Origin: a virus
Taxonomy: Duplodnaviria; Caudoviricetes
Length of the DNA: 43,566 bases
Virus record (IMG/VR): IMGVR_UViG_3300024309_000002
Coordinates: 1 to 43,566 of that record
Strand: one strand, 5' to 3'
Below the pieces are notes generated by a model. The model was not told where the DNA came from. It made no database searches and was given only the letters and a program-made list of their open reading frames with translations. Shown here piece by piece: positions 12,977 to 41,539 of the stretch (positions within the stretch are counted from its first letter, which is position 1; each line of letters opens with the position of its first letter). Made by a program: the position numbers and the translations under genes.

Positions 12977-13165
12977 CTAGGTCTTTTTGCGCGCGAACCA
13001 GTGCCACGCGCACCAGCCAACACCAGCAAGAACCAATATCGAGCCGAAGGCGGCCTCACCACTTCCGAACCATTTGCCGGGGGTGGCCGCGATGCTGAAC
13101 AGGACGGCGGCCACGACAACAGCCATGATCCCTTGCATCACTCGTCTTTCACGTTGCTTGTTCAT
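12977..13165 (-). CDS. Small two-TM membrane protein, candidate superinfection-exclusion factor
   Basis: Two hydrophobic segments, SD AGGAGG, between the repressor gene and its terminator. Confidence 0.6.
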   Translation of the reverse strand: MNKQRERRVMQGIMAVVVAAVLFSIAATPGKWFGSGEAAFGSILVLAGVGWCAWHWFARKKT

Positions 13166-28558: not shown

Positions 28559-30331
28559 ATGCCGACCGTACCGACCTACGACGCCCCCCAAGTTGCTTCG
28601 ACCGAATTGCCCGGTGTGGGCCTGCGCTCCGTCGTGTCCCCCGGTCTGCTCACGGCTGGCTCGCGTGGGGCCGAGATCGCTCTACGCGACAACGCGAGCA
28701 ACGCACGTGGCGCGATGGACTTGGGCCGTGCGGTGCTCGACATCGGCGTGAAAATGCAGGCGCGTGACGATCTCGAAACGATCTTCACGCAGGAAACCGC
28801 TCTCAAAGATGGATGGGTCAAATTCCAAAACGAAGCGCGCCAGCGTAACGGCGCGAACGCTGCGGGCCTGACGGCGGAAACCGATGCGTGGTTTCAGCAG
28901 CAGGAGCAGGAACTCACCAAAAACTTCACCAATCGCAACCAGCAAATTGCTTTCGCCAAGACCTTCGGCCAACTACGCGCGCAGGCGATGGGCAGCATGT
29001 CGGCCTACGAGACGCAGGAACGCGAGCGCTCGCTGGCCGAGACTGCCGAGGCGTCGATAAATAGTTCGATCAATCTGGCGGCTACGGCAGCGCTCGACCC
29101 CAAAACGAACCCTGCACCGGCAGCCGCCCAGGCGCGCGAGGACATTCAATCGCGGCTGGACGTGATCGGCAAGATGCGTGGCTGGACACCCGAAGTGCTC
29201 GCTGACAAGAAAGCGAAGATGCTGGACAGCCTGCACATGTCTGTCATTGCGGCGATGATCGACCAGCGCCCCGGCGTGGCGAAAGCCTACATGAAGGCCA
29301 ACAAGGACGAGATCAGCGGCGTGAGCCAAGCGAAGGTGCGCGACTGGCTCGACACCATCGCCAAGCGCGCCGAGGGCGACGTAATCCTTGCTACGGCGCA
29401 ATCCTTCGCTGACGACGCGATCAGCAGCGGCATGACCGAGTACGACGCCATCAACGCCGCACGCGCGAAGTTCTCGGGCAAGCAGGAGGAGCAGGCTGTT
29501 CAAGCGCTCAAGGTGCGATACAACGAGCGGCAGACCTCGGCAGCCGATGCCGCCTGGGGTGCCTTCCAGAATGGCGGCGGCAAGATCGAAGCGATCCCGG
29601 TTTCGATCTTCAACGATCTGAACCCCAAGGACAAGGCCGCGCTGCAAGAGGCGGCGGCCAACGGTATTTTCCCCAAGCAATCCGACCGAGGGACGCTGGC
29701 AGACCTGTACTCGCTCGAAGCACGGGGCGATCTCACGCCGGACGTGGTGCGTCGCGCCTCGTCGCAACTGAACCAAGGCGACTATCAGAAGTTCATGGAC
29801 TCGGCGAACTCGCCCGACAAGCAGCGCACGGCCAGTATCGACGCCGACGACTTCAACACCCTGGCCGTGAAAACTGAACGCTTTGATCCCTTCTCCTCGA
29901 AGCCCGAGGACAAGGCCAAGATCGGCGAGTTGCGCTCGGCCATTGAAGCCCGGATCGACGAAGAACAGCAGGCCAAAAAGCGCGTGCTGACACGCGACGA
30001 GAAAAAGGCTGTCATGCAGTCCGTGCTCGACAACAAAGTGTTCGTTGACGAGTGGGGCCGCGATCCCGAGAAACTGCAATACCAACTGTCGGCGGACGAC
30101 CGGCAAAACGCCTACGTCGTGGTCAACACGCCGATCACGGTGCGCGGCTCGCGCTTCTCGCAGCCAGTGCAGACTACGAAGAAACAGACGATCTACCTGC
30201 GCGACATCAGCAAAGAGGAGCGCAACGCGATCATCAACAAGCTGACAAAACTGAACATGCCGATCACTGAACAGAGCATCGCCGAAGCCTGGGCCAACGC
30301 CAAGCAAAAGCAAGCCGAGTGGGGTAAATAA
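28559..30331 (+). CDS. Internal virion (ejection) protein 2, about 590 aa
   Basis: MPTVPTYD start typical of this position; helical composition; between ejection protein 1 and the giant protein. Confidence 0.7.
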   Translation: MPTVPTYDAPQVASTELPGVGLRSVVSPGLLTAGSRGAEIALRDNASNARGAMDLGRAVLDIGVKMQARDDLETIFTQETALKDGWVKFQNEARQRNGANAAGLTAETDAWFQQQEQELTKNFTNRNQQIAFAKTFGQLRAQAMGSMSAYETQERERSLAETAEASINSSINLAATAALDPKTNPAPAAAQAREDIQSRLDVIGKMRGWTPEVLADKKAKMLDSLHMSVIAAMIDQRPGVAKAYMKANKDEISGVSQAKVRDWLDTIAKRAEGDVILATAQSFADDAISSGMTEYDAINAARAKFSGKQEEQAVQALKVRYNERQTSAADAAWGAFQNGGGKIEAIPVSIFNDLNPKDKAALQEAAANGIFPKQSDRGTLADLYSLEARGDLTPDVVRRASSQLNQGDYQKFMDSANSPDKQRTASIDADDFNTLAVKTERFDPFSSKPEDKAKIGELRSAIEARIDEEQQAKKRVLTRDEKKAVMQSVLDNKVFVDEWGRDPEKLQYQLSADDRQNAYVVVNTPITVRGSRFSQPVQTTKKQTIYLRDISKEERNAIINKLTKLNMPITEQSIAEAWANAKQKQAEWGK

Positions 30332-33300
30332 TGGCCGACACTCGCAGCTTCACCGACGCGCTCGACGCGGTATTCAGCACCGGCACGCCGCCCGCTGGCC
30401 TGCAAGAGCAAGGCAACATCGACCTCACGGCGCGGCCTGTGGTGAACAACCCGGACGGGTCGATCAGCACTGTGCGCTCGATGTCTTTCAACATGGACGG
30501 GCAGGAGGTGTTGATCCCGACCGTGGCCGACGATGGCTCTCGCATCCTGTCCGATGACGAGGCCGTAGACCAGTACCGGCGTACGGGAAAGTTCCTCGGC
30601 AAGTTCGACACGCCTGAAAACGCCACGGCCTACGCGGAACAACTGCACAGCGATCAGGAGCAGCGCTACAACCCCGAATTCATGCGCGCGCTCGACGTGA
30701 CGCTTGGCGAGCAGCAAGAGGAAAATGCCGCCCGCCTGTCGGCGGTGTTGGCAAGCGTCGCCCGCATGAACCCGGACAAGTACGCCAACGCGCTCGCGCT
30801 GTCCAAGGCATCCGGCCTGCCCGTCGATCTTGTCGAACGCAACTTCGACGACGTGGCCCGCGCGCAGCAGATGCGCGACTTGAAGGCGTTGGCCGCGCGT
30901 AGCCCCGTGCTCGCGCAGCAGCTACTCGATCCGCAATTCGCCGCGCTCGCCAAGGACGACGGCGGCCCGCTGTCGGAGATCGAAAAGCAGTTTGGCACGA
31001 TCCGCGCCACGCCGCAGCCGGACAACACGGTAGCGAATTGGGCGCGCGGCCTGTGGACAACCTTCACGGAAAGCATGTCCCGTCAGCGGCTCAACGTGCA
31101 GCTTGAAGGCTTGGATTTGTTTGGTGGCAATTCCGACGCCGAGGAAATCCGCCGCGCCGATCTGCTGCGCCGGATCGCTGCCTCGCAGTCCCGCGCGGAT
31201 AGTTCCACACCAGACATCGACTCGGTTGTCGCGCGCGACATCTATAGTGGCCTGTCGAGCACCTTGCAGCAACTGCCCGGCTTGGGGCTGGCTGTGCTCA
31301 CGCGCAACCCGGCTTTTGGCCTTGCCTGGGCTGGCTCCCAAGCGCAGACGGATGCCTACGGCAAGTACCGCACTCGCGGCGGCACGCCGGGTGAAGCTGC
31401 GTTCGGCAGTGGCCTCGAAGGGGCCATCGAAGTCGGAACCGAAGCGATCCCGATGGGTTTCTTTGTTGACCGCTTCGGCAAGGAAGGGATGCGCGCGTTT
31501 ATCGGCGGCTTGCTGGCACGCGAGGTTCCCACCGAGATCGTGGCTACCATCGGGCAAAGCGCGGTCGATACCGCCATTGCTAATCCGAGCGCGACGTGGG
31601 GCGATTACATCGACTCACTGCCTTCGGACATCCGATCCACCTTCATCGCTACGGTCACGCAATCAATTCTGACGGGCGGGGCTGGCACGCTGGCTTATCG
31701 TCTGTCGGGCGAGCGCTCGCGTGTTCGTGCTGCCCAGGACAATGCGGCGGCTGTCGAGCGGCTTAAGCAACTCACGACGGCGATGAACCTGTCCAAGCGC
31801 GACGTATCGAGCGCGCAGACTTTCCTCGACGCGGCTGCCGCCGATGGCCCGCTTGAGAACATCTACCTCGACGTGCAGCGCTTGCAGCAGTCCGACGTGG
31901 ACTTGACCAAGCTGGCCGAGGTGTTGCCCTCGGCTGCCGAACAGATCGGCCCGGCGCTTGCCACGGGCGACGACATCGTGATCCCGGTGGGTGAGTTCCT
32001 CACGAACATTCAGGGTTCCGATCTCGACGCCCAGGTAACGCCGCACATCCGCACGTCGCCCGACGCCTTGAGCGTGGACGACGCCAACCGCTTCGTTGCC
32101 TCCGAGACGGCCAACATGCAGGCAGCCGCCGCGCAGATCGTGGCCGAGCGCGAGCAGGACGCAGCGTGGCAATCGGAAGTCGCCCAGGTTGAGCAGCACT
32201 TTGCCGATCAATTGGCCCAAGTCGGGCGGTTCAGCCCGGACGTGAACAGCGCCTATTCGGGGGTGCTTCGTGACTTTTATACAACGATGGCTGCACGCAC
32301 TGGCCGCACGCCAGCGCAGATGTTGGCCGAGTTTCCGCTGCAAGTCCGGGCCGAAGGTATCCCCGGCGAGCAACAACTGAATCAGGAGGCCGCCGATGGC
32401 AGCCACACTACCGCCACTGTCCCCGGAGTATCGGGCGGACAAGACCTTCTCACAACTGTCGCAGGCCAACAAGCCAGCGCCGGATGGGCAGCCGCAACCG
32501 TCGTCCGACGACCAGACGACCGCCCTGCTGCGGTTTATCGAGCAGGCCGAGCAGTCACCCCAGGCGACTTCGACGGGGCCGTTGTCGGGCCTGCTGGCGG
32601 CCCTGCGGGGCATGGCCTCGGCGTTTGGTTTACCAGCGAGCAGCGAGAGGCCGCCGAAAATGGAACCGTAACGCCCTACTACCTCGATTTGCGTAACCCG
32701 TTCCCGACCACATTGGCGGCCATGCCCCGATTTGAGACGGCGGCCCAGGCCGCCGCATGGCGTGACGAACTGCGCGCGCAAGGGTATGATGGAGTGGCTA
32801 TCGACGAGCGCGAGCGCGGCGGCCCTGTGCAGTTTGTGGCCTTCGCTCCCGAGGCCGTCATCCAAGCCCCTCCCTCCGATCCGTTGAATGTGGGGGCATT
32901 TTCACAGGGGCAAGATGATGGAACTGGACGAGGACTTGAAGGACGCACTGACGTATCTGGACGAGGCGAGGCGCGCGGAAGCGATAGCGCACTTGCAGGA
33001 GGCGAAGGACTCGCCAGCGGAGTTCGCACTGCGTCGGATGGCGATCATGGCGGAAGCGGAAGAATCACCGAAGATCGGGGACTTGCGCCTCTTGAAGGTG
33101 CGCCATCAGTCCAAGGGTTTCACGGGCCAGACCCGCGACTCGTCGCTGTCGCAGAACAATACGCCGCCGACCAGGGGATAACTCTCAAGCGGCAAGCCGT
33201 CTATGTCGAAGTCGATCCCGAGCGGGCTACCCGCATCGCGGCGGCTTACGACGAGATGGAACACGCCCCCCACGACCCGAAGGTCAAAGAAGCATACGCC

Positions 33301-36300
33301 AACCTCATCGCGCAGACTGTCGCACAGTACCGCGCTCTTGAAGCGGCAGGCTATCGCTTCTGGTTCATCGACATCAATACCCCCGAAGGGCGGGCGTATT
33401 CGTCCTCGCCGTGGAACGCCATGCGCGACATCCGGGCGAATCAGTCGATGGGCATTTTCCCGACTGACGAGGGCTTCGGCTCCAACGAAGAATTCAACGC
33501 GGACGAAAACCCGCTGCAAGCCGACACCGGCATTCTGTGGCCCAACGGATCGCCAGACGGGCCGCTAAAACCCGTGCTCGCCAATGACCTTTTCCGTGCG
33601 GTACACGACGCTTTCGGCCACGGCCTTGAGGGCGCAGGCTTTCGCGCGCGGGGCGAGGAAAACGCTTGGCAGTCGCACGTGCGCCTTTTCACGGGCAGCG
33701 CGGTAGGCGCGATCACCACCGAGACACGCGGGCAAAATAGCTGGCTCAACTATGGCCCCTACGGTGAAAGCAACCGCACGGCCAGCGCAGCCGAAACCCA
33801 CTTCGCCGACCAGAAAACGGGCCTCATGCCCGAGTGGACTTGGCAGGAAGGCGTCGCGCCCGACGAGGGCGGTAACGGTAGTGGAGACGAACGCAGCACG
33901 CTCGAACAATCCGCCCTGCCGCCTGGGCAGATCACGCTCGTCCACTACTCGAATCAGGCTGATCTCGCGCAGACCGACCCGGACAAACACGGCACCGGCT
34001 ACAAGGGTGCGGAACGCCAGCGCCGCGATGCGTTCCCCGATCTGTACGTCAACCGCACCTACTTCGGCATCACGGGGATCGACAATCCTTATCAGCGCGA
34101 GTCGGGCCTCGGCACGAACGTCTACCACGCGACGGTGGATTCCGCCGACCTGTACGACATGAAGGCCGATCCCGATGGTCTGTATCCGCAGGCGCGCGAG
34201 GAATCACGACGCACCGATCTGAACGGTATCGAGAACTGGACTCGCACGGAAAGCATCTACAAGGCCATGATCCGCGACGCGGGATACAAGGGCTACTACG
34301 TCGGCAACGTGGCCGCCGTGTTTGAGCCGATGGCCGTGCAGAAGGGCAACGCGATGGCTCAAAACGAATCGCGCGGCCAACTGTCCTTCGGCAGCGACAT
34401 CACGCAGTCGCCAAGCGTCATCACGCTGTTCGAGAAAGCCAACCTCTCGACGCTGCTGCATGAACTCGGCCACTTCCAGCTTGAGGTGCTCGCCAATCTG
34501 GCCGCGCGGCCCAACGCGCCCACCAGCATCGTCGCCGACATGAACGCCGTGCTGCGCTGGTTCGACGAGTGGTTCACGCTCGATCAATGGCGTGCGATGA
34601 CCGTAGAGGAAAAGCGCCCATACCACGAACGATTCGCGCGCGGCTTCGAGGCGTATTTGTTCGAGGGCAAAGCACCTACCCCGGAACTGAAAACGCTGTT
34701 CCAGCGTTTTGCCGCCTGGATGCGCCGGGTGTACCAGAACATCACGCGCCTGAACGTCGAGGTGTCGCCCGAGGTGAAAGCGGTGTTCGACCGGATGCTC
34801 GCGTCAGAACAGGCCATCGCCGAGGCCCAGGCCGCCGCCAGCATGACTCCGGCTTTCGGTTCCGCCGAGGCGATGGGAACGGATGCCGAGGGTTTCACAG
34901 CCTATCAGGCACTCGGGCAGGAAGCCACGGACACGGCCACGGATGCCCTACAGCAACGCAGCCTGCGCGACATGCGCTACGCAGGCAAAGCGCGCGACAA
35001 GTTCATCAAGGACATGCAGAAGGCCACGGCCCGCATCCGCAAGACGCTGCGCGCCGAGGTGCAGGCCGACGTGCGCGCTCAACCCGTCTACGCCGCCATG
35101 CACTTCCTACGGCGCGGCGAGATGACGACGGACGCAGGCGAGCAGATCAAGGCCAGCATCGGTCACAAACTGGATCGGGCAGCCCTGGCCGAGATGTACC
35201 CCGACTCTATGCTCTCGCGCCCCGACCTGTCGCGGCTGCGCGGCATGACGCGCAAGGATGGGCTGCACCCCGATCAAGTCGCCGAGATATTCGGCTTTCA
35301 GTCGGGCGATCAGCTTGTGCGCGAGATCATCGACGCGACACCGGAAAACGAGTATGTCGAGGCCGAGACGGACGCGCGCATGTTGGAACGCTACGGCGAC
35401 ATCACCAGCCCCGAAGCGCTCGCTCGTGCCGCCGACGAGGCGATCCACAACGACGTGCGCGCTCGCTTCGTGGCTACCGAGATCAAGGCCGCCGTGAAGT
35501 CTGTCGGCCCCGTGCGTGCGCTGACGGCGGCAGCCAAGGACTACGCCGAGCGCCTGATCGCGCGCAAGCGGGTCAAGGACTTGCGCCCCCGGCAGCACGC
35601 CGCAGCCGAAGGGCGCGCGGCCAAGGCCGCGCTCGATGCGCTCGCCAAGAACGACCCCCAGGGCTTCGCCGTGCAGAAACGCAATCAGCTTGTGCAAATC
35701 CAAGCGACGAAGTTGGCCTACGAGGCACAGAACGAGATGGCTGCCATGCTGCGCCGTTGGTCGCAGATCGTGCGGCGTAACGATGAGCGTGCAGGCAAGT
35801 CCTACGACATCGACATGCTCAACGCGGTGCGCGCCATCCTCGGCATGTACGGGATCGCGCCGCGCACGGGCGAGCGCGCGATGGACTATCTCGGCAAGGT
35901 GAAGAACTACGACCCCGACATGTATGCCGTGGTCGAGGATTCCGTCATGCGCGCCGAAGCCAACGCGCAGCCGTTCGATGAGTTGACGGTCGAGGACGCG
36001 CGGGCCTTGCGCGACGAGATCGACGCGCTGCTGCACCTTGCACGCCGCAGCAAGCAAATGGAGGTGGACGGCGATCTGATCGACCGGCAGGAAGTCGAGG
36101 AAGCCTTGCGCGCCCGCATGGAGGAGATCGGCCTGCCCGATGTCGCCCCCGGCCAGTTGTCGGCCATCACGCCCAAAGAGCAGGCCATCATCCGCTTCAA
36201 GACGTTCCGGGCGGCTGCGCGCCGTGTGGAAAGTTGGGTGGGCGAGATCGACGGCAAAGACTTCGGGCCGTTCCGCCGCTTTATGTGGAACCGGGTGAAG

Positions 36301-38238
36301 GACGCCGCGACTGCGTACCGCACGGACAAGGCCAAGCACCTCACGAAGCTGCGCGACTTGCTCAACAGCATCGCGCCCTCGCTCAAGCCCCTGCGGATCG
36401 AAGCCCCCGAGTTGAACTACACGTTCGGCAAGGACACGGCCAACAGCGCCACGGCGGAAATCCTGCACGCGCTGCTGCACACCGGCAACGAGAGCAACAA
36501 GCGCAAGCTGCTGCTCGGGCGCAATTGGGCTACCGAGCGCGAGGACGGTTCGCTCGACACGTCGCGGTGGGATGCCTTCATCAAGCGCATGATCGACGAG
36601 GGCCGGATCACCAAGGCCCATTACGACTTCGCGCAGGGCGTGTGGGACTTGCTCGAAAGCCTCAAGCCGCTCGCACAAAAGACGCACCGGGATGTGTTCG
36701 GCAAATACTTCGACGAGATCACGGCCACGCCGTTCTCCACGCCTTTCGGCGACTACCGAGGCGGGTACGTACCGGCCAAGGCCGACACGCGCATTGTGGG
36801 CGATGCAGCAATGCGCGATCTGATCGAGCGCGAAAACGCGAGCATGGCCTATGCCTTCCCCGCCACGGCCAAGGGCTTCACGAAGGGCCGCGTCGAATAC
36901 AACCGCCCGCTCATGCTTGACCTGCGTACGCTCGCGCAGCACGTCGATCAAGTGCTGCTGTTCTCGCACATGGAGATGCCGGTACGCGACGTGACGCGCG
37001 TGCTCAAGGGCGTGCAAGGCACGCTGTACCGGCTTGACCCCACGGCCCTGTCCGGGATGCTCACGCCCTGGCTCAACCGTGCCGCCCGCCAGCAGGTTGT
37101 CACGCCTATCGCGGGCGACGCCGGGATGTCTCGCTTCTGGTCTGTGCTGCGCTCGCGCGCAGGCGCGGCGGCCATGTTCGCCAACATCGCCAACGCGGCG
37201 CAGCAGATCACGGGCTTTTCCCTGGCTGCGGTGAAGGTCAAGCCGCGCCTGCTCAAATCGGCCATCGCCGACTACATGAAAAGCCCGCGCGAGTTCACCC
37301 GCGCGGTGGCCGAAGCGTCGCCCTTCATGTCCGACCGCATGAACGACACCATCGGCCATCTCTCGGACGACATCCGGGAAATCTTGCTGAACCCGACGAA
37401 GTTGCAACAGGCCCAGGGCTGGACAATGCGCCATGCTTATTTCTTGCAGCAGGCCGTCGATAATGTCATGTCGCCCTCGATCTGGCAGGCCGCCTACAAC
37501 CAGCACGTCGAGGAAGGCCACAACCACGATGACGCGGTGCGCTTCGCTGACGGCGTGATCCGGCAGACCCAGGGCAGCCAACTGCCCGAGGACGTGTCGC
37601 GCATCGAAACCGGCCCGGCCTTCGTGCGGCTGTTCACGCAGTTTGCCGGGTACTTCAACATGCAAGCCAACCTACTCGGCACCGAGTTCGCCAATCTGGC
37701 GCGAGACTACGGGCTGCGTAAGGGGGCGAGTCGGGGGTTCTTTGTGCTCGCGTCGGGGTTCCTCGTACCGGCTATCGTGGCCGAGGCCGTCGTGCAAGTG
37801 TTTCGAGGCGGGCCGGGCGACGAGGACGACGATGGCTATCTCGATGACTGGCTCTCGGCCTTGAGCCTGGGCGTGCTACGCAACGCAACGGCGATGGTTC
37901 CCATCGCCGGACAGCTTGCCAATGCCGTCGTGAACTCGATGAACAACAAGCCATACGACGACCGGCTCGCCACGGCCCCCGCAATCTCCATGATCGAGAA
38001 CGCGATCCGGGCGGTTCCCTCGACCTACAAGGCGGCGGCAGGCACCGGCAGCGCGCAGAAGGCCGTGCGCGATGTGGCCTCGCTTATTGGCATCACGGTG
38101 GGCCTGCCTGCTCCTGTGGCTGCGCGTCCCCTGGCCTACGCTGCGGGCATGGCTTCGGGCAAGATCGAGCCAACCAGCGCGCTCGATACGGCCCGTGGTC
38201 TGCTGACAGGTACAGCCAGCGAGGAGTCCCGACGATAA
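30331..38238 (+). CDS. Giant internal virion/ejection protein with inserted enzymatic domains (polyvalent protein), 2635 aa
   Basis: Position of the T7 gp16 analogue; two ADP-ribosyltransferase-like segments, a RAVHDAFGH...EENAW domain and a HELGH zincin motif. Confidence 0.8.
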   Translation: MADTRSFTDALDAVFSTGTPPAGLQEQGNIDLTARPVVNNPDGSISTVRSMSFNMDGQEVLIPTVADDGSRILSDDEAVDQYRRTGKFLGKFDTPENATAYAEQLHSDQEQRYNPEFMRALDVTLGEQQEENAARLSAVLASVARMNPDKYANALALSKASGLPVDLVERNFDDVARAQQMRDLKALAARSPVLAQQLLDPQFAALAKDDGGPLSEIEKQFGTIRATPQPDNTVANWARGLWTTFTESMSRQRLNVQLEGLDLFGGNSDAEEIRRADLLRRIAASQSRADSSTPDIDSVVARDIYSGLSSTLQQLPGLGLAVLTRNPAFGLAWAGSQAQTDAYGKYRTRGGTPGEAAFGSGLEGAIEVGTEAIPMGFFVDRFGKEGMRAFIGGLLAREVPTEIVATIGQSAVDTAIANPSATWGDYIDSLPSDIRSTFIATVTQSILTGGAGTLAYRLSGERSRVRAAQDNAAAVERLKQLTTAMNLSKRDVSSAQTFLDAAAADGPLENIYLDVQRLQQSDVDLTKLAEVLPSAAEQIGPALATGDDIVIPVGEFLTNIQGSDLDAQVTPHIRTSPDALSVDDANRFVASETANMQAAAAQIVAEREQDAAWQSEVAQVEQHFADQLAQVGRFSPDVNSAYSGVLRDFYTTMAARTGRTPAQMLAEFPLQVRAEGIPGEQQLNQEAADGSHTTATVPGVSGGQDLLTTVAGQQASAGWAAATVVRRPDDRPAAVYRAGRAVTPGDFDGAVVGPAGGPAGHGLGVWFTSEQREAAENGTVTPYYLDLRNPFPTTLAAMPRFETAAQAAAWRDELRAQGYDGVAIDERERGGPVQFVAFAPEAVIQAPPSDPLNVGAFSQGQDDGTGRGLEGRTDVSGRGEARGSDSALAGGEGLASGVRTASDGDHGGSGRITEDRGLAPLEGAPSVQGFHGPDPRLVAVAEQYAADQGITLKRQAVYVEVDPERATRIAAAYDEMEHAPHDPKVKEAYANLIAQTVAQYRALEAAGYRFWFIDINTPEGRAYSSSPWNAMRDIRANQSMGIFPTDEGFGSNEEFNADENPLQADTGILWPNGSPDGPLKPVLANDLFRAVHDAFGHGLEGAGFRARGEENAWQSHVRLFTGSAVGAITTETRGQNSWLNYGPYGESNRTASAAETHFADQKTGLMPEWTWQEGVAPDEGGNGSGDERSTLEQSALPPGQITLVHYSNQADLAQTDPDKHGTGYKGAERQRRDAFPDLYVNRTYFGITGIDNPYQRESGLGTNVYHATVDSADLYDMKADPDGLYPQAREESRRTDLNGIENWTRTESIYKAMIRDAGYKGYYVGNVAAVFEPMAVQKGNAMAQNESRGQLSFGSDITQSPSVITLFEKANLSTLLHELGHFQLEVLANLAARPNAPTSIVADMNAVLRWFDEWFTLDQWRAMTVEEKRPYHERFARGFEAYLFEGKAPTPELKTLFQRFAAWMRRVYQNITRLNVEVSPEVKAVFDRMLASEQAIAEAQAAASMTPAFGSAEAMGTDAEGFTAYQALGQEATDTATDALQQRSLRDMRYAGKARDKFIKDMQKATARIRKTLRAEVQADVRAQPVYAAMHFLRRGEMTTDAGEQIKASIGHKLDRAALAEMYPDSMLSRPDLSRLRGMTRKDGLHPDQVAEIFGFQSGDQLVREIIDATPENEYVEAETDARMLERYGDITSPEALARAADEAIHNDVRARFVATEIKAAVKSVGPVRALTAAAKDYAERLIARKRVKDLRPRQHAAAEGRAAKAALDALAKNDPQGFAVQKRNQLVQIQATKLAYEAQNEMAAMLRRWSQIVRRNDERAGKSYDIDMLNAVRAILGMYGIAPRTGERAMDYLGKVKNYDPDMYAVVEDSVMRAEANAQPFDELTVEDARALRDEIDALLHLARRSKQMEVDGDLIDRQEVEEALRARMEEIGLPDVAPGQLSAITPKEQAIIRFKTFRAAARRVESWVGEIDGKDFGPFRRFMWNRVKDAATAYRTDKAKHLTKLRDLLNSIAPSLKPLRIEAPELNYTFGKDTANSATAEILHALLHTGNESNKRKLLLGRNWATEREDGSLDTSRWDAFIKRMIDEGRITKAHYDFAQGVWDLLESLKPLAQKTHRDVFGKYFDEITATPFSTPFGDYRGGYVPAKADTRIVGDAAMRDLIERENASMAYAFPATAKGFTKGRVEYNRPLMLDLRTLAQHVDQVLLFSHMEMPVRDVTRVLKGVQGTLYRLDPTALSGMLTPWLNRAARQQVVTPIAGDAGMSRFWSVLRSRAGAAAMFANIANAAQQITGFSLAAVKVKPRLLKSAIADYMKSPREFTRAVAEASPFMSDRMNDTIGHLSDDIREILLNPTKLQQAQGWTMRHAYFLQQAVDNVMSPSIWQAAYNQHVEEGHNHDDAVRFADGVIRQTQGSQLPEDVSRIETGPAFVRLFTQFAGYFNMQANLLGTEFANLARDYGLRKGASRGFFVLASGFLVPAIVAEAVVQVFRGGPGDEDDDGYLDDWLSALSLGVLRNATAMVPIAGQLANAVVNSMNNKPYDDRLATAPAISMIENAIRAVPSTYKAAAGTGSAQKAVRDVASLIGITVGLPAPVAARPLAYAAGMASGKIEPTSALDTARGLLTGTASEESRR
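32396..32671 (+). CDS. Candidate nested +1-frame gene A inside the giant protein, 91 aa
   Basis: AGGAGG 6 nt before the ATG; G/C-ending codons in this frame while the host frame uses rare CGA/GGA/CCA codons. Confidence 0.5.
   Translation: MAATLPPLSPEYRADKTFSQLSQANKPAPDGQPQPSSDDQTTALLRFIEQAEQSPQATSTGPLSGLLAALRGMASAFGLPASSERPPKMEP
32915..33181 (+). CDS. Candidate nested +1-frame gene B inside the giant protein, 88 aa
   Basis: AGGGG before ATGATG; acidic amphipathic helix MELDEDLKDALTYLDEARRAEAIAHL; codon-bias inversion relative to the host frame. Confidence 0.55.
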   Translation: MMELDEDLKDALTYLDEARRAEAIAHLQEAKDSPAEFALRRMAIMAEAEESPKIGDLRLLKVRHQSKGFTGQTRDSSLSQNNTPPTRG

Positions 38239-38300: not shown

Positions 38301-40220
38301 ATGACCGTTTCCAATACCAATCGTCGCGCGGGGCCGTTTCCGGGTGCTGACTCGCCTGGGCCTTTCGGTTTCGACTTTTACACCCCCGCCCCCGAGGATG
38401 TCGTCGCAATCCGGGCAGACCCCCTCGGCGCGGAAACGGCGCTCATCTACGGCGCGGATTTCTCGGTCACGTTGAACGACGACCAGAGCGAGAACCCCGG
38501 CGGGGATTTGCTGCTCACGAACGCGCTGCCCTCCGGCTACACGCTCACGCTCACGAGCGCCTCGCCCGCATTGCAACCGACCGACATCACGAACTTGAGC
38601 GGCTTCTACCAGAAGCTGATTACGCTGGCGCTCGACCGGCTCACCGTGCTCGTGCAGCAGACGGATGAGAAAGTCGGGCGTGCGGTGAAGGTGCCGATTT
38701 CCAGCACGATCACGCCGGACGATCTCATCAACCAGCTTACCAACGCGGCATCCGACGCCGTGAATGCAGCATTGAACGCGGCCACGTCCGAAGGCAATGC
38801 CCATGACTCGGAAGTCGCGGCAGCTACCAGCGAGAGCAACGCCCACGATTCCGAACTGGCCGCTGCGCTGTCGGAAAGCCGCGCCGCAGCAAGTGAAGGT
38901 GCTGCCGCTGGATCGGCCAGCGCAGCCCTGGTCAGCGAAGGTCACGCCCACGACTCCGAACTGGCCGCTGCACTGTCCGCATCGAACGCGGCCACGTCCG
39001 AAGGCAATGCCCACGATTCCAAGGTGGCAGCGGCCACGTCCGAAGGCAACGCCGCCGATTCGGCCAGCGCAGCCGCTGCGAGTCAGAACGCCGCTGCGCT
39101 GTCCGAAACCCACGCCGCTGCAAGCGAAGTGGCCGCCAAGACATACCTCGAAACCCTGGTGCAACCTTTCGCGTTCACGAAAGCGGACTACAACACGCCC
39201 TGCCTGAAAAAGACCGGGGCGCAAACCGTCAGCATCAAAGCCGGTACGGTCGTTGTTGTGTCCAACGTAGCGCGGGCCTTCCCTGCCGATACCGCTGTCA
39301 CGATGCCCGGTACGCTCACCGCAGGCGAGGATTACAGCGTGTGGGTCAAGCCCGACAATACCGCTGTGGCCGTTGTCGATTCGTTCCTGGCCCCGGCCAG
39401 CGCGCCCGCCGTGGGCGCGGTACGCATCGGCGGCTTCCACTACGGTCTGGTCACGGCGGGCGAGACAGTGGCCGGGGGCAGTTTCGCCACCAGTGGGGTG
39501 ACAGCAGGCGGCGGGTCGATGGCCTGGACGCAAACCGATGTAGACCGCATCGCGGGTATCAACGAGTTTTCCCTGTGGGACTTGGCTTTCCGCTGCGCGG
39601 GTGAACAGTATGGCATGGCCTATGACCCCTGGGCCGACGTGTGGGTCGCTATCTACTTCTGCAACACCGCCCCCCATGTCAATGGCGTCAGCCGCTACAA
39701 CACGGACGTTTGCAGCGGCACCGTTCTGCCCTTCGTCGCGCCGTCTTTCGGCGGCGACGGGGTGCTGAAATACAGCGCCTTCCGATCCTGGGAGGCGAAC
39801 GAAATTTGCCTAGATCATGGCCTGCGCCTGATCCGGTACGAAGAATTCGTATCCGCCGCGTTCGGCGTCACCGAGGGCCAGAGCCTGGGCGGCGCGTCCG
39901 CAACGATTCCGGCCACCATGCGCCAGCCGGGCTACACGTCGCGCATCGGCCTGGAACAGACCACCGGCCATGTCTACACCATCGGCGGCCCGATGATCGG
40001 GCAAGGCGGATCGGCCTGGGCAGGAAACGGTCGGGGATCGAACTATGGCGGTGGGTGCGTCCAGTTGTTCGGCGGCGCCCGTACGGGCGCGTCCGGTTCG
40101 GGGTCGCGTTGCGTCGACTTCGGCAGCGGCCTCGGGTCCTCGAACTGGAGCGTTTCGCTGCGCGCCGCCGGTGACCCGCAAAAAACAATCGGCCCGGCCC
40201 TTTATCAAGAGGCCGCGTAA
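38301..40220 (+). CDS. Tail fibre/receptor-binding protein with C-terminal Mtd-like (C-type lectin fold) domain; DGR target, 639 aa
   Basis: N-terminal podovirus fibre anchor (ALDRLT...QQ), Ala/Ser repeat shaft, GGFHY...INEFSLWD..FR motifs resembling BPP-1 Mtd, and a VR near the 3' end. Confidence 0.88.
   Translation: MTVSNTNRRAGPFPGADSPGPFGFDFYTPAPEDVVAIRADPLGAETALIYGADFSVTLNDDQSENPGGDLLLTNALPSGYTLTLTSASPALQPTDITNLSGFYQKLITLALDRLTVLVQQTDEKVGRAVKVPISSTITPDDLINQLTNAASDAVNAALNAATSEGNAHDSEVAAATSESNAHDSELAAALSESRAAASEGAAAGSASAALVSEGHAHDSELAAALSASNAATSEGNAHDSKVAAATSEGNAADSASAAAASQNAAALSETHAAASEVAAKTYLETLVQPFAFTKADYNTPCLKKTGAQTVSIKAGTVVVVSNVARAFPADTAVTMPGTLTAGEDYSVWVKPDNTAVAVVDSFLAPASAPAVGAVRIGGFHYGLVTAGETVAGGSFATSGVTAGGGSMAWTQTDVDRIAGINEFSLWDLAFRCAGEQYGMAYDPWADVWVAIYFCNTAPHVNGVSRYNTDVCSGTVLPFVAPSFGGDGVLKYSAFRSWEANEICLDHGLRLIRYEEFVSAAFGVTEGQSLGGASATIPATMRQPGYTSRIGLEQTTGHVYTIGGPMIGQGGSAWAGNGRGSNYGGGCVQLFGGARTGASGSGSRCVDFGSGLGSSNWSVSLRAAGDPQKTIGPALYQEAA
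38776..39130 (+). repeat. Imperfect coding repeats (AATSEGNAHDSE-like) in the fibre shaft
   Basis: Recurring GCGGCCACGTCCGAAGGCAA and GCCCA(C/T)GA(C/T)TC units. Confidence 0.75.
40068..40173 (+). repeat. DGR variable repeat (VR) ending in a G/C element
   Basis: 106-bp gapless match to 40316-40421; all 18 mismatches lie opposite TR adenines. Confidence 0.95.
40195..40215. promoter_or_regulatory. Candidate DGR target-recognition hairpin downstream of VR
   Basis: CGGCCCTT-TATC-AAG(A)GGCCG, an 8-bp stem with one bulge; the loop reads GATA on the bottom strand. Confidence 0.4.
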
Positions 40221-40315
40221 TGAACATCGCACTGCCGCGCCAAAGCGCCCTGCCTCCGTTGGCAGTGCATCGGTTTTTGCTGCCCTTCTGGACGGCAAAA
40301 AGGGTGGAGCAAGAT

Positions 40316-40421
40316 AACAGCGGCAACCGTACGAACACGTCCAATTCGGGGTCGCGTTGCGTCAACTTCAACAACGGCCTCGGGAACTCGAACTGGAACA
40401 TTTCGCTGCGCGCCGCCGGTG
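40316..40421 (+). ncRNA. DGR template repeat (TR)
   Basis: AAC-rich copy of VR with 24 adenines; diverges from VR right after ...GCCGCCGGTG (IMH versus IMH* position). Confidence 0.95.
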
Positions 40422-40558
40422 GCGATTGTCAACCCGCCGTGATGCAAGCCGCGCATCCCGGCACTTTGGTCAGCTTGCTTCACCTGCTTCGGCAAATACC
40501 TTCCTGGGTGCGGAGAACGGCGAGTAGTGAGAATCGAAAGCCGCGCCGCCTTGTTGTC

Positions 40559-41539
40559 ATGGGCAAGAAATACAAGAACCTTTACGACACCATCACGTCG
40601 ATGGAGAACCTGCGCGCGGCGTACAAAAAGACCTCGCGCGGCAAGCGCAAGACCCGCAGCTACCGGACGTTCACCGGCCACCTGGATAGCCGCCTGCGAT
40701 CTGTGCGGCGCAGTCTGATGACGGGATCGTACCGGCAAGGCAAGCCCCGCCAGTTCACGATTTTTGAGCCGAAAGAACGCCTGATTTCCGCGCTGCCCTT
40801 CCGCGACCGCCTTGTGCAGCATGCGCTTTGCAACGTCATCGAGCCGATTTTCGACGGGGTGTTTCTGCCGCAGTCCTACGCCTGCCGCAAAGGCAAAGGA
40901 ACGCATGCCGCTGCCCGCGACGTGCAGGCGGCGCTTCGCCGGATGCAGGCCCAGGGCCTGCCGGTGTGGGTGCTGAAAACGGACTTCTCCAAGTATTTCG
41001 CCAGCATTCCCCTGGACGTGCTGCACCGCGAGTATCGGCGCAAGATTTCGTGTAAACGCACCCTGGCGCTGCTGGACAAACTGCTGCCCAAATCGGGCCG
41101 GGGCATCCGCATCGGCGAACTTATCAGCCAACTTTCGGCCAACCTGATCGGCCACGTCGTGGACCGCTGGCTCGTCCACACGAAGGGTGTCACGACGTTC
41201 TTTCGCTACATGGACGACATCGTGATCCTGGGTTCCGACCGGGCGGCCCTGGCCCGCCTGCGCGTCGAACTCGAAGCCTTCGCGCTGGCTGAACTCGGCC
41301 TGCACTTTTCGCGCTGGTCACTGCTGCCAGTCTCGCGCGGAGTCAATTTCGTGGGCTACCGCATCTGGCCTTCTCACAAACTGCTGCGCCGGGATTCCGT
41401 CACCCGCGCCAAGCGCAAGGTGCGCCGGTATCGGGCGCACGGCGCGATGGAGCGTTTGCGGATGTTCCTGGCGTCTTGGCTCGGCCACGCCCGGTGGGCC
41501 GACTCGCATCACCTGATCGCATCTATGGGGGTCGCATGA
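40559..41539 (+). CDS. brt: DGR reverse transcriptase, 326 aa from MGKKYKNL; the frame is open back to the ATG at 40220
   Basis: EPKERLI.ALPFRDR, YACR.GKGTH, DFSKYF, IG..ISQ, YMDD and FVGYRI motifs; size and N-terminus resemble BPP-1 bRT; adjacent TR and VR. Confidence 0.95.
   Translation: MGKKYKNLYDTITSMENLRAAYKKTSRGKRKTRSYRTFTGHLDSRLRSVRRSLMTGSYRQGKPRQFTIFEPKERLISALPFRDRLVQHALCNVIEPIFDGVFLPQSYACRKGKGTHAAARDVQAALRRMQAQGLPVWVLKTDFSKYFASIPLDVLHREYRRKISCKRTLALLDKLLPKSGRGIRIGELISQLSANLIGHVVDRWLVHTKGVTTFFRYMDDIVILGSDRAALARLRVELEAFALAELGLHFSRWSLLPVSRGVNFVGYRIWPSHKLLRRDSVTRAKRKVRRYRAHGAMERLRMFLASWLGHARWADSHHLIASMGVA

Follow-up and report, generated by a model that had tools for sequence, protein, structure and literature searches.

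A putative small gene nested in the +1 frame over the start of an ART-fold domain in a giant phage virion gene

Within a giant virion gene, the window (the whole 43,566-nt stretch of viral DNA analysed) carries a small ORF in the +1 frame that overlies the start of a predicted ART-fold domain. Its Shine-Dalgarno (SD) site and ATG, the handover of codon usage between frames, purifying selection in both frames, and homologous ORFs in distant phages make it very likely that this ORF, here called A, is a real and separately translated small gene. The reading preferred in the current study goes further, and takes the product of A to be the binding partner (chaperone or inhibitor) of the ART-fold module over whose start it is encoded. 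The probability of this joint reading is put at roughly 0.4; the binding role, considered by itself, is a tentative proposal that falls a little short of even odds.

The window represents a BPP-1-like temperate podovirus, as seen from its gene order: recombinase, DNA polymerase A, portal, capsid, a T7 gp14-like gene, the giant gene (nt 30331-38238), Mtd and reverse transcriptase. The giant gene, referred to below as the host gene of A, lies downstream of the T7 gp14-like gene.

30331..38238, + strand: host giant gene, encoding a 2635-aa large polyvalent virion (ejection-type) protein, Bbp10-like, with an N-terminal LPD22 domain

The LPD22 domain at the N-terminus of the host protein is recognised by Pfam (E=2e-18), and the N-terminal 690 aa match BPP-1 bbp10 at 27.6%. 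Polyvalent proteins probably enter the cell together with the phage DNA, according to passages of PMC5512222. Bbp10 of BPP-1 resembles the host protein in its orthologous position and N-terminal core, and the BPP-1 genome has the same plan as the window, with Mtd and reverse transcriptase. Unlike the host protein, Bbp10 has 2052 aa, carries a PBECR1 domain and shows no ART match; no nested ORF in it passed the tests for SD, ATG and codon inversion applied below. In the window, an Mtd-like tail gene with a reverse transcriptase immediately after it (nt 38301-41539, + strand) makes up a BPP-1-type diversity-generating retroelement. The domains of the host protein seem to be set apart by short [LF]-x-Q junctions (LNQ, FSQ, LEQ), and the starts of A and of a second nested gene, B (see below), both lie just past such a junction. 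Two other proteins, P0006 and P0007, have a common ART-fold module with different domains upstream of it.

The features of A are as follows.

32384..32389, + strand: Shine-Dalgarno site of A, AGGAGG, 6 nt upstream of the ATG at 32396 and unchanged in the related locus L009
32396..32671, + strand: nested gene A, in the +1 frame of 30331-38238, 91 codons (91 aa)
32441..32464, + strand: A family motif, residues 16-23 of A, K-T-F-x-Q-L
32576..32632, + strand: hydrophobic stretch of A, residues 61-79, lineage-specific, overlying an eroded host loop

The AGGAGG at 32384-32389, the 6-nt spacing, the ATG at 32396 and the 91-codon +1 ORF are exactly as claimed in an earlier note on this DNA. The AGGAGG appears to sit right after the LNQ module junction of the host protein. 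Two AGGAGG+ATG sites are listed in the window, that of A and a minus-strand site at 13165, which opens a 62-codon ORF and is probably a small ordinary gene. The product of A begins M-A-A-T-L-P-P, contains no cysteine, and is in large part low-complexity P/Q/S/A. Its family motif occupies DNA that the host frame reads as D-L-x-x-T-V-A-G, an extension of the ART-fold domain. Residues 61-79, which may be read as an amphipathic helix, include 7 L/I/V/M/F against 2.0 +/- 1.3 when the host gene is synonymously recoded (p=0.003). No special RNA structure was seen at the SD of A (z 0.53). The stretch also occurs as contigs in one RNA run (X4); contigs cannot show translation. A fusion by programmed frameshift was set aside, as a slippery heptamer is absent from the window and from 11 of 15 loci.

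Codon usage changes hands over A. The host frame has a GC3s of 0.56, compared with 0.80 +/- 0.04 expected from its amino acids, while the nested frame reaches 0.78, compared with 0.64 +/- 0.06 for the +1 frame of 894 control windows; the codon adaptation index over A is likewise higher in the nested frame (0.59) than in the host frame (0.42). The GC3 computation suggested in the earlier note thus favours the nested frame, and its description of a +1 frame ending mostly in G/C is borne out. In a sliding GC3 profile the host dip begins at A, with a deeper dip at B. The host codons that had been described as rare elsewhere are indeed enriched over A relative to the rest of the giant gene: CGA accounts for 5 of 6 Arg codons (8 of 181 in the rest), and GGA (4/16 vs 7/167), ACT (3/10 vs 11/141) and CCA (2/6 vs 7/108) follow the same pattern. 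The depression of host codons is present in every third of A (z -3.9, -4.8 and -3.7), and is not clear in the half of the ART-fold domain outside the overlap (z -1.7).

The length of A is ordinary for the window, as its open stretch comes only about 21st to 22nd among the 244 +1-frame segments and the frame stays open in 9% of recodings that keep the host amino acids, so that the case for A rests on codons and conservation. Open +1 stretches of this length are common in a GC-rich genome, and Q-E-A-A-D-G in the host protein can by itself spell AGGAGG...ATG, which would suit an artefact, i.e. a chance open frame with a chance SD arising from host amino-acid composition. All null models in which the host protein was held fixed were rejected, however, and the signal returns at the same position in 15 of 16 distinct loci (see below); the artefact is accordingly very improbable and largely refuted by the sequence data.

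Close relatives give a second line of evidence. The sequence L008 is identical to the window, and L009, with 85% nucleotide identity over the region, keeps the SD, the ATG, the 91 codons and the TAA of A; the A proteins of L009 and the window are 84% identical, with the same start, length and stop. Between these two, differences are seen at 4 of 65 host four-fold sites in A compared with 44 of 140 in the two flanks together (p=3e-5), in a giant gene along which divergence from L009 is patchy. Host amino-acid changes are as frequent in A (6/92) as in the flanks (6/72 and 9/85), which speaks against a recently exchanged patch. On a larger scale nt 30331-36630 of the window is strongly mosaic relative to L009, with a far diverged N-terminal part and a middle part at 0.3 at four-fold sites; the C-terminal core of the giant gene stands at 0.04.

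When variants are pooled from L009 and 8 sequencing runs (contigs, several of them of low depth and partial cover), pS is 0.18 in A compared with 0.54 and 0.44 in the flanks, and pN is 0.058 compared with 0.046 and 0.049. By these counts the host frame is under selection over the A overlap. None of the 26 variants places an internal +1 stop in A and one turns the stop TAA into TGA, although the lack of stops alone is weak evidence, since only 9 of 228 host-silent changes are able to create one. Most variants within A alter the nested amino acid. At the protein level, P0002, P0004 and P0005 retain Q-E-A-x-D-G, the host stretch that spells the start signal of A.

More distant loci, in which the ART-fold domain is 33-45% identical, were recovered by DNA-pattern scans; several other scans for related loci gave none. 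One scan gave 20 matches, one of them false. Two loci, L010 and L036, proved to be false matches and were left out. With duplicates and close pairs cut to one locus each there are 16 distinct loci including the window (15 in some tests); the use of the host loop motif to find them biases this sample of the ART-fold subfamily. A +1 ORF of 58-91 aa, beginning 55-91 codons upstream of the loop motif, is present in 15 of the 16. These ORFs start at the same place and carry K-[TS]-x-x-[QE]-L, the first part of a longer motif common to the family, K-[TS]-x-x-[QE]-L-x-x-E-x-P-x-x-G-G-L. Where such an ORF is expected, 14 of 16 loci combine an SD-like site, an ATG and an ORF of at least 40 codons, compared with 14 of 244 control windows; at a stricter SD the figures are 8 of 16 and 5 of 244. 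In L028 the nested ORF is present with a weak SD. In L023 the domain core is retained, but the N-terminal extension and the nested ORF are both missing.

Conservation in the +1 frame exceeds what the host protein forces. With codons resampled and host amino acids fixed, z is 6.4, 4.2 and 3.6 over host aa 704-745, and 0.4 outside the overlap. In the reciprocal test, with the nested protein held fixed, the host motif scores 1.50 against 0.31 +/- 0.18, in an alignment anchored on the nested lysine and so favouring the nested score. A profile of the family built without A gives A 25.6 bits, a score reached by none of 2000 synonymous recodings, and places it at the top of 761 six-frame segments (E=5.5e-7). 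In 14 of 15 nested ORFs the stop falls on an NTA host codon. The nested motif used alone as query gave 12 matches, of which 10 lie over the ART-fold domain, one of these being a new locus; the other two (L048 and L052) were dropped as chance motif matches. No free-standing copy of A was found in the protein database at E<=1 or by the nested-motif search. A has no Pfam match, 18 members of its family gave a single match in PHROGs (E=0.069), and the Atlas returned only weak unnamed clusters for A, as also for B; such blanks do not prove an absence of relatives. From its sequence, A belongs to a conserved family of nested ORFs over this ART-fold subfamily. The claim of a real overprinted gene missed by annotation is thus strongly supported, by the codon inversion, by a frame free of stops in close homologues and by the conserved family that the suggested comparison of homologues brought to light.

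It could be argued that the act of translation matters rather than the peptide, +1 initiation and termination serving to tune ribosome load, mRNA stability or the output of the giant gene. The start and stop signals are well kept, and the peptide is mostly variable in length (58-91 aa) and of low complexity. Stops cluster at host aa 746-770 (11 vs 2.8 expected), and this clustering also fits such a role. Set against it are the motif amino acids, conserved beyond host forcing, and the comparison of L037 with L040, in which all three linker changes are silent in the nested frame. This explanation is considered improbable.

Within the family, A itself is an unusual member. It fits the others only in the first half of the motif, its z against the rest of the family being 2.7 at host aa 704-712 and -0.4 at 713-728; the half reading G-G-L-A-Q-L-A-S is replaced in A by polar and proline residues. 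The loss of this half could mean that A was once a functional family member and is now decaying or weakly expressed in this lineage. Its perfect SD, the suppressed host-synonymous change, the codon depression in 3 of 3 thirds and the excess of hydrophobic residues in its extension all speak against decay, which is given little credence. An extension like that of A, ending at the same codon, is found in L026, where the host loop is retained.

The domain beneath A is the following.

32443..32871, + strand: non-canonical ART-fold domain, host aa 705-847, the first 77 residues overlapped by A

All 19 members of the domain alignment match the ART-PolyVal profile (PF18760) at E<=0.01, the best at 1.1e-12; the window domain scores 25.3 bits (E=2.9e-5), under the gathering score of 31.2. 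A first structural model from 4 sequences was unusable (pLDDT 46). The model from 19 sequences has a pLDDT of 88.9, with the first 40 residues, under A, scoring above 90 and only loop 47-55 low. Nearly all top rows of a structure search with it were PARP/ART folds, the best being PARP-1 with a middling Z of 7.2 (rmsd 3.3 over 112 residues); Foldseek gave a best E of 0.014 and none below 0.001. On the strength of this model the host domain is assigned an ART fold. No match was found in a sequence search of the PDB. The structure searches also match the cyanophage A4 pre-ejectosome, for which passages of PMC12002296 contain no mention of 'ADP-ribosyl' or 'NAD'. The domain subfamily comprises 127 clusters at E<=1e-30.

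ART-PolyVal shares with the host domain its fold family and its setting in LPD22 virion proteins, as described in part of PMC5512222. The ART-PolyVal site consists of H in strand 1, Y in strand 2 and an acidic residue in strand 5, given as H-Y-D in that source. Unlike this site, the window domain has R737, a W in strand 2 and Q834, so that the H-Y-acid triad is absent, and across 160 relatives the three positions are R (156), W/F/Y (105/44/9) and H/Q/N (88/42/17). As this loss is common to the whole subfamily, the nested gene is not its cause; the third position in any case falls outside the overlap.

The overlapped half had been called degenerate in the earlier note, which holds for one loop only. 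Near-invariant residues under A have been lost in the window lineage (G738, L752, P759-S760 and Y777), and the eroded loop is the site where A reads as a hydrophobic stretch. Otherwise the half is confidently modelled and matches 23 of 32 subfamily-conserved positions, compared with 23 of 29 outside the overlap. It is predicted to fold and stands under selection, its erosion being only local. Overprinting as the reason for degeneracy could similarly apply to the one loop and not to the triad, lost subfamily-wide and with one of its three positions beyond A.

A is not the only candidate nested gene in the host gene.

32918..33181, + strand: nested gene B, +1 frame, 87 aa from an ATG shared with L009, with AGGGG at 32906-32910, located in the linker that precedes the next domain
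33100..33879, + strand: second host domain, downstream of B, matching phrog_3170 (E=1.2e-12; annotated as of unknown function)

The codon inversion is stronger in B than in A (host GC3s 0.43-0.44, nested 0.81). Relative to L009, 1 of 23 four-fold sites differs and 20 of 53 host codons change their amino acid; the B proteins are 49% identical, with the N-terminal half conserved. No family match was found for B. A weak sigma-70-like site (9/12; 0.2 expected by chance) lies at 32762-32790 on the + strand, about 130 nt upstream of B. The second host domain has tblastn matches in polyvalent genes. A third domain (33901-34350, + strand), with a V-H-Y-S strand and a G-Y-K-G-Y motif, looks ART-like by eye; it has no PHROGs match and no codon inversion.

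Across 14 phage sequences, a survey that includes the window and in which the window and L009 are not independent, SD, ATG and codon inversion coincide 8 times in giant genes (107 kb), in every case in the +1 frame, and not once in neighbouring genes (69 kb). Nested ORFs behind the same host domain resemble each other in L001, L014 and L015. Unannotated SD-led +1 ORFs occur in L001 (5096, 5771, 5981), L014 (12614 and near host aa 1460), L015 (11268, 12117), L004 (4945) and L005 (2122). The GenBank phages with these ORFs are MW202722, MW202640, PQ492659, MW202675 and OL906435, and several of the ORFs are alike between phages, before or after the same host domain. In L007 (636-845), a 69-aa nested +1 ORF with an SD-like site and codon inversion lies in a linker of the same giant gene. 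A nested gene does not invariably precede domain 2, since L002 and L003 have no clear one.

If the product of A does act on the ART-fold module, internal initiation on the late mRNA would yield a peptide of 60-90 aa alongside the giant protein. Within the cell that makes the virions, the motif K-T-F-x-Q-L-L-x-E-x-P-x-x-G-G-L would keep the module silent or folded; as A would not be packaged, the virion protein would reach the next cell without it. In the window lineage the second half of the motif has been eroded, and A has acquired a hydrophobic C-terminal extension over strands 1 and 2 of the domain. The specific role proposed in the earlier note, as inhibitor or chaperone of the adjacent effector, is a guess. 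The subfamily lacks the H-Y-acid triad, so the domain may be non-toxic and may need no inhibitor. The partner reading is also weakened by canonical ARTs in L001, L003, L014 and L015, which have no adjoining nested ORF of the kind of A, and by L023, where the domain core stands without the nested gene. A predicted complex of A with the domain scored 0.29 against a mark of 0.32, and is counted neither for nor against.

Close behind the partner role in odds stands the possibility that A is real and functionally independent of the ART-fold domain, with another target such as a host defence protein, head assembly or another part of the giant protein. The co-occurrence of the A family and the domain is in part a consequence of the overlap, as two readings of one stretch of DNA are necessarily inherited together; the domain appears to be non-catalytic and is also found without a nested gene, and plain linkers also host nested genes (e.g. 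B). An independent gene would sit less easily with the want of any free-standing A in the protein database (E<=1), with the 10 of 12 motif matches that lie over the domain, and with the tendency of nested families to track particular host domains.

A partnership between A and its host product would have precedents. In phage lambda, Rz1 is in the +1 frame. Like the embedded spanins Rz/Rz1, A is a small gene wholly within a larger phage gene on the same strand; unlike them, its host is a 2635-aa LPD22 virion protein and not a lysis protein, and A, being free of cysteine, is not a lipoprotein, whereas the Rz1 o-spanin has a signal peptide and a lipobox cysteine. Spanin genes may be embedded, overlapped or separated, and the two products, also when one gene lies within the other, work together as a complex (PMC6139136, in part); the pairing of A with its domain is in contrast a proposal from sequence. 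For an internally started product that acts on its host product, the functional model is the Rpn intragenic antitoxins, in which the small RpnS blocks the full-length RpnL product (passages of PMC10327210). RpnS is in frame, corresponds to the C-terminal domain of the toxin and belongs to a bacterial defence gene, while A is out of frame (+1), unrelated in sequence to the host protein, and within a phage structural gene. Embedded phage genes and intragenic antitoxins are thus already known from the parts of these two sources consulted. What appears to be new is a hidden and conserved family of genes encoded over a domain of a giant virion protein that is predicted to be folded. The text of PMC5512222 contains neither 'overlap' as a whole word nor 'linker' or 'frameshift', and a literature search with thin coverage of subscription journals found no paper that deals with genes nested in those of polyvalent virion proteins.

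A broader and rather doubtful extension is that giant polyvalent virion genes are hidden operons, in which each exchangeable effector module carries its cognate +1 partner. The A family would then be a partner fused in the DNA to the folded N-terminus of its domain, both being selected across phages that are about 40% identical. If this is true, module and regulator would move together with the giant reading frame unbroken.

The results indicate that annotation misses small genes inside such ORFs of 2000-5000 aa. A would also provide a natural example of one set of bases under selection for two proteins, of which one is a predicted folded domain and not a linker. Polyvalent virion proteins probably enter the cell with the DNA, and how a phage makes them with the producing cell unharmed becomes a testable question, since a hidden gene family tied to one module may be probed by altering its start codon without any change to the host protein.
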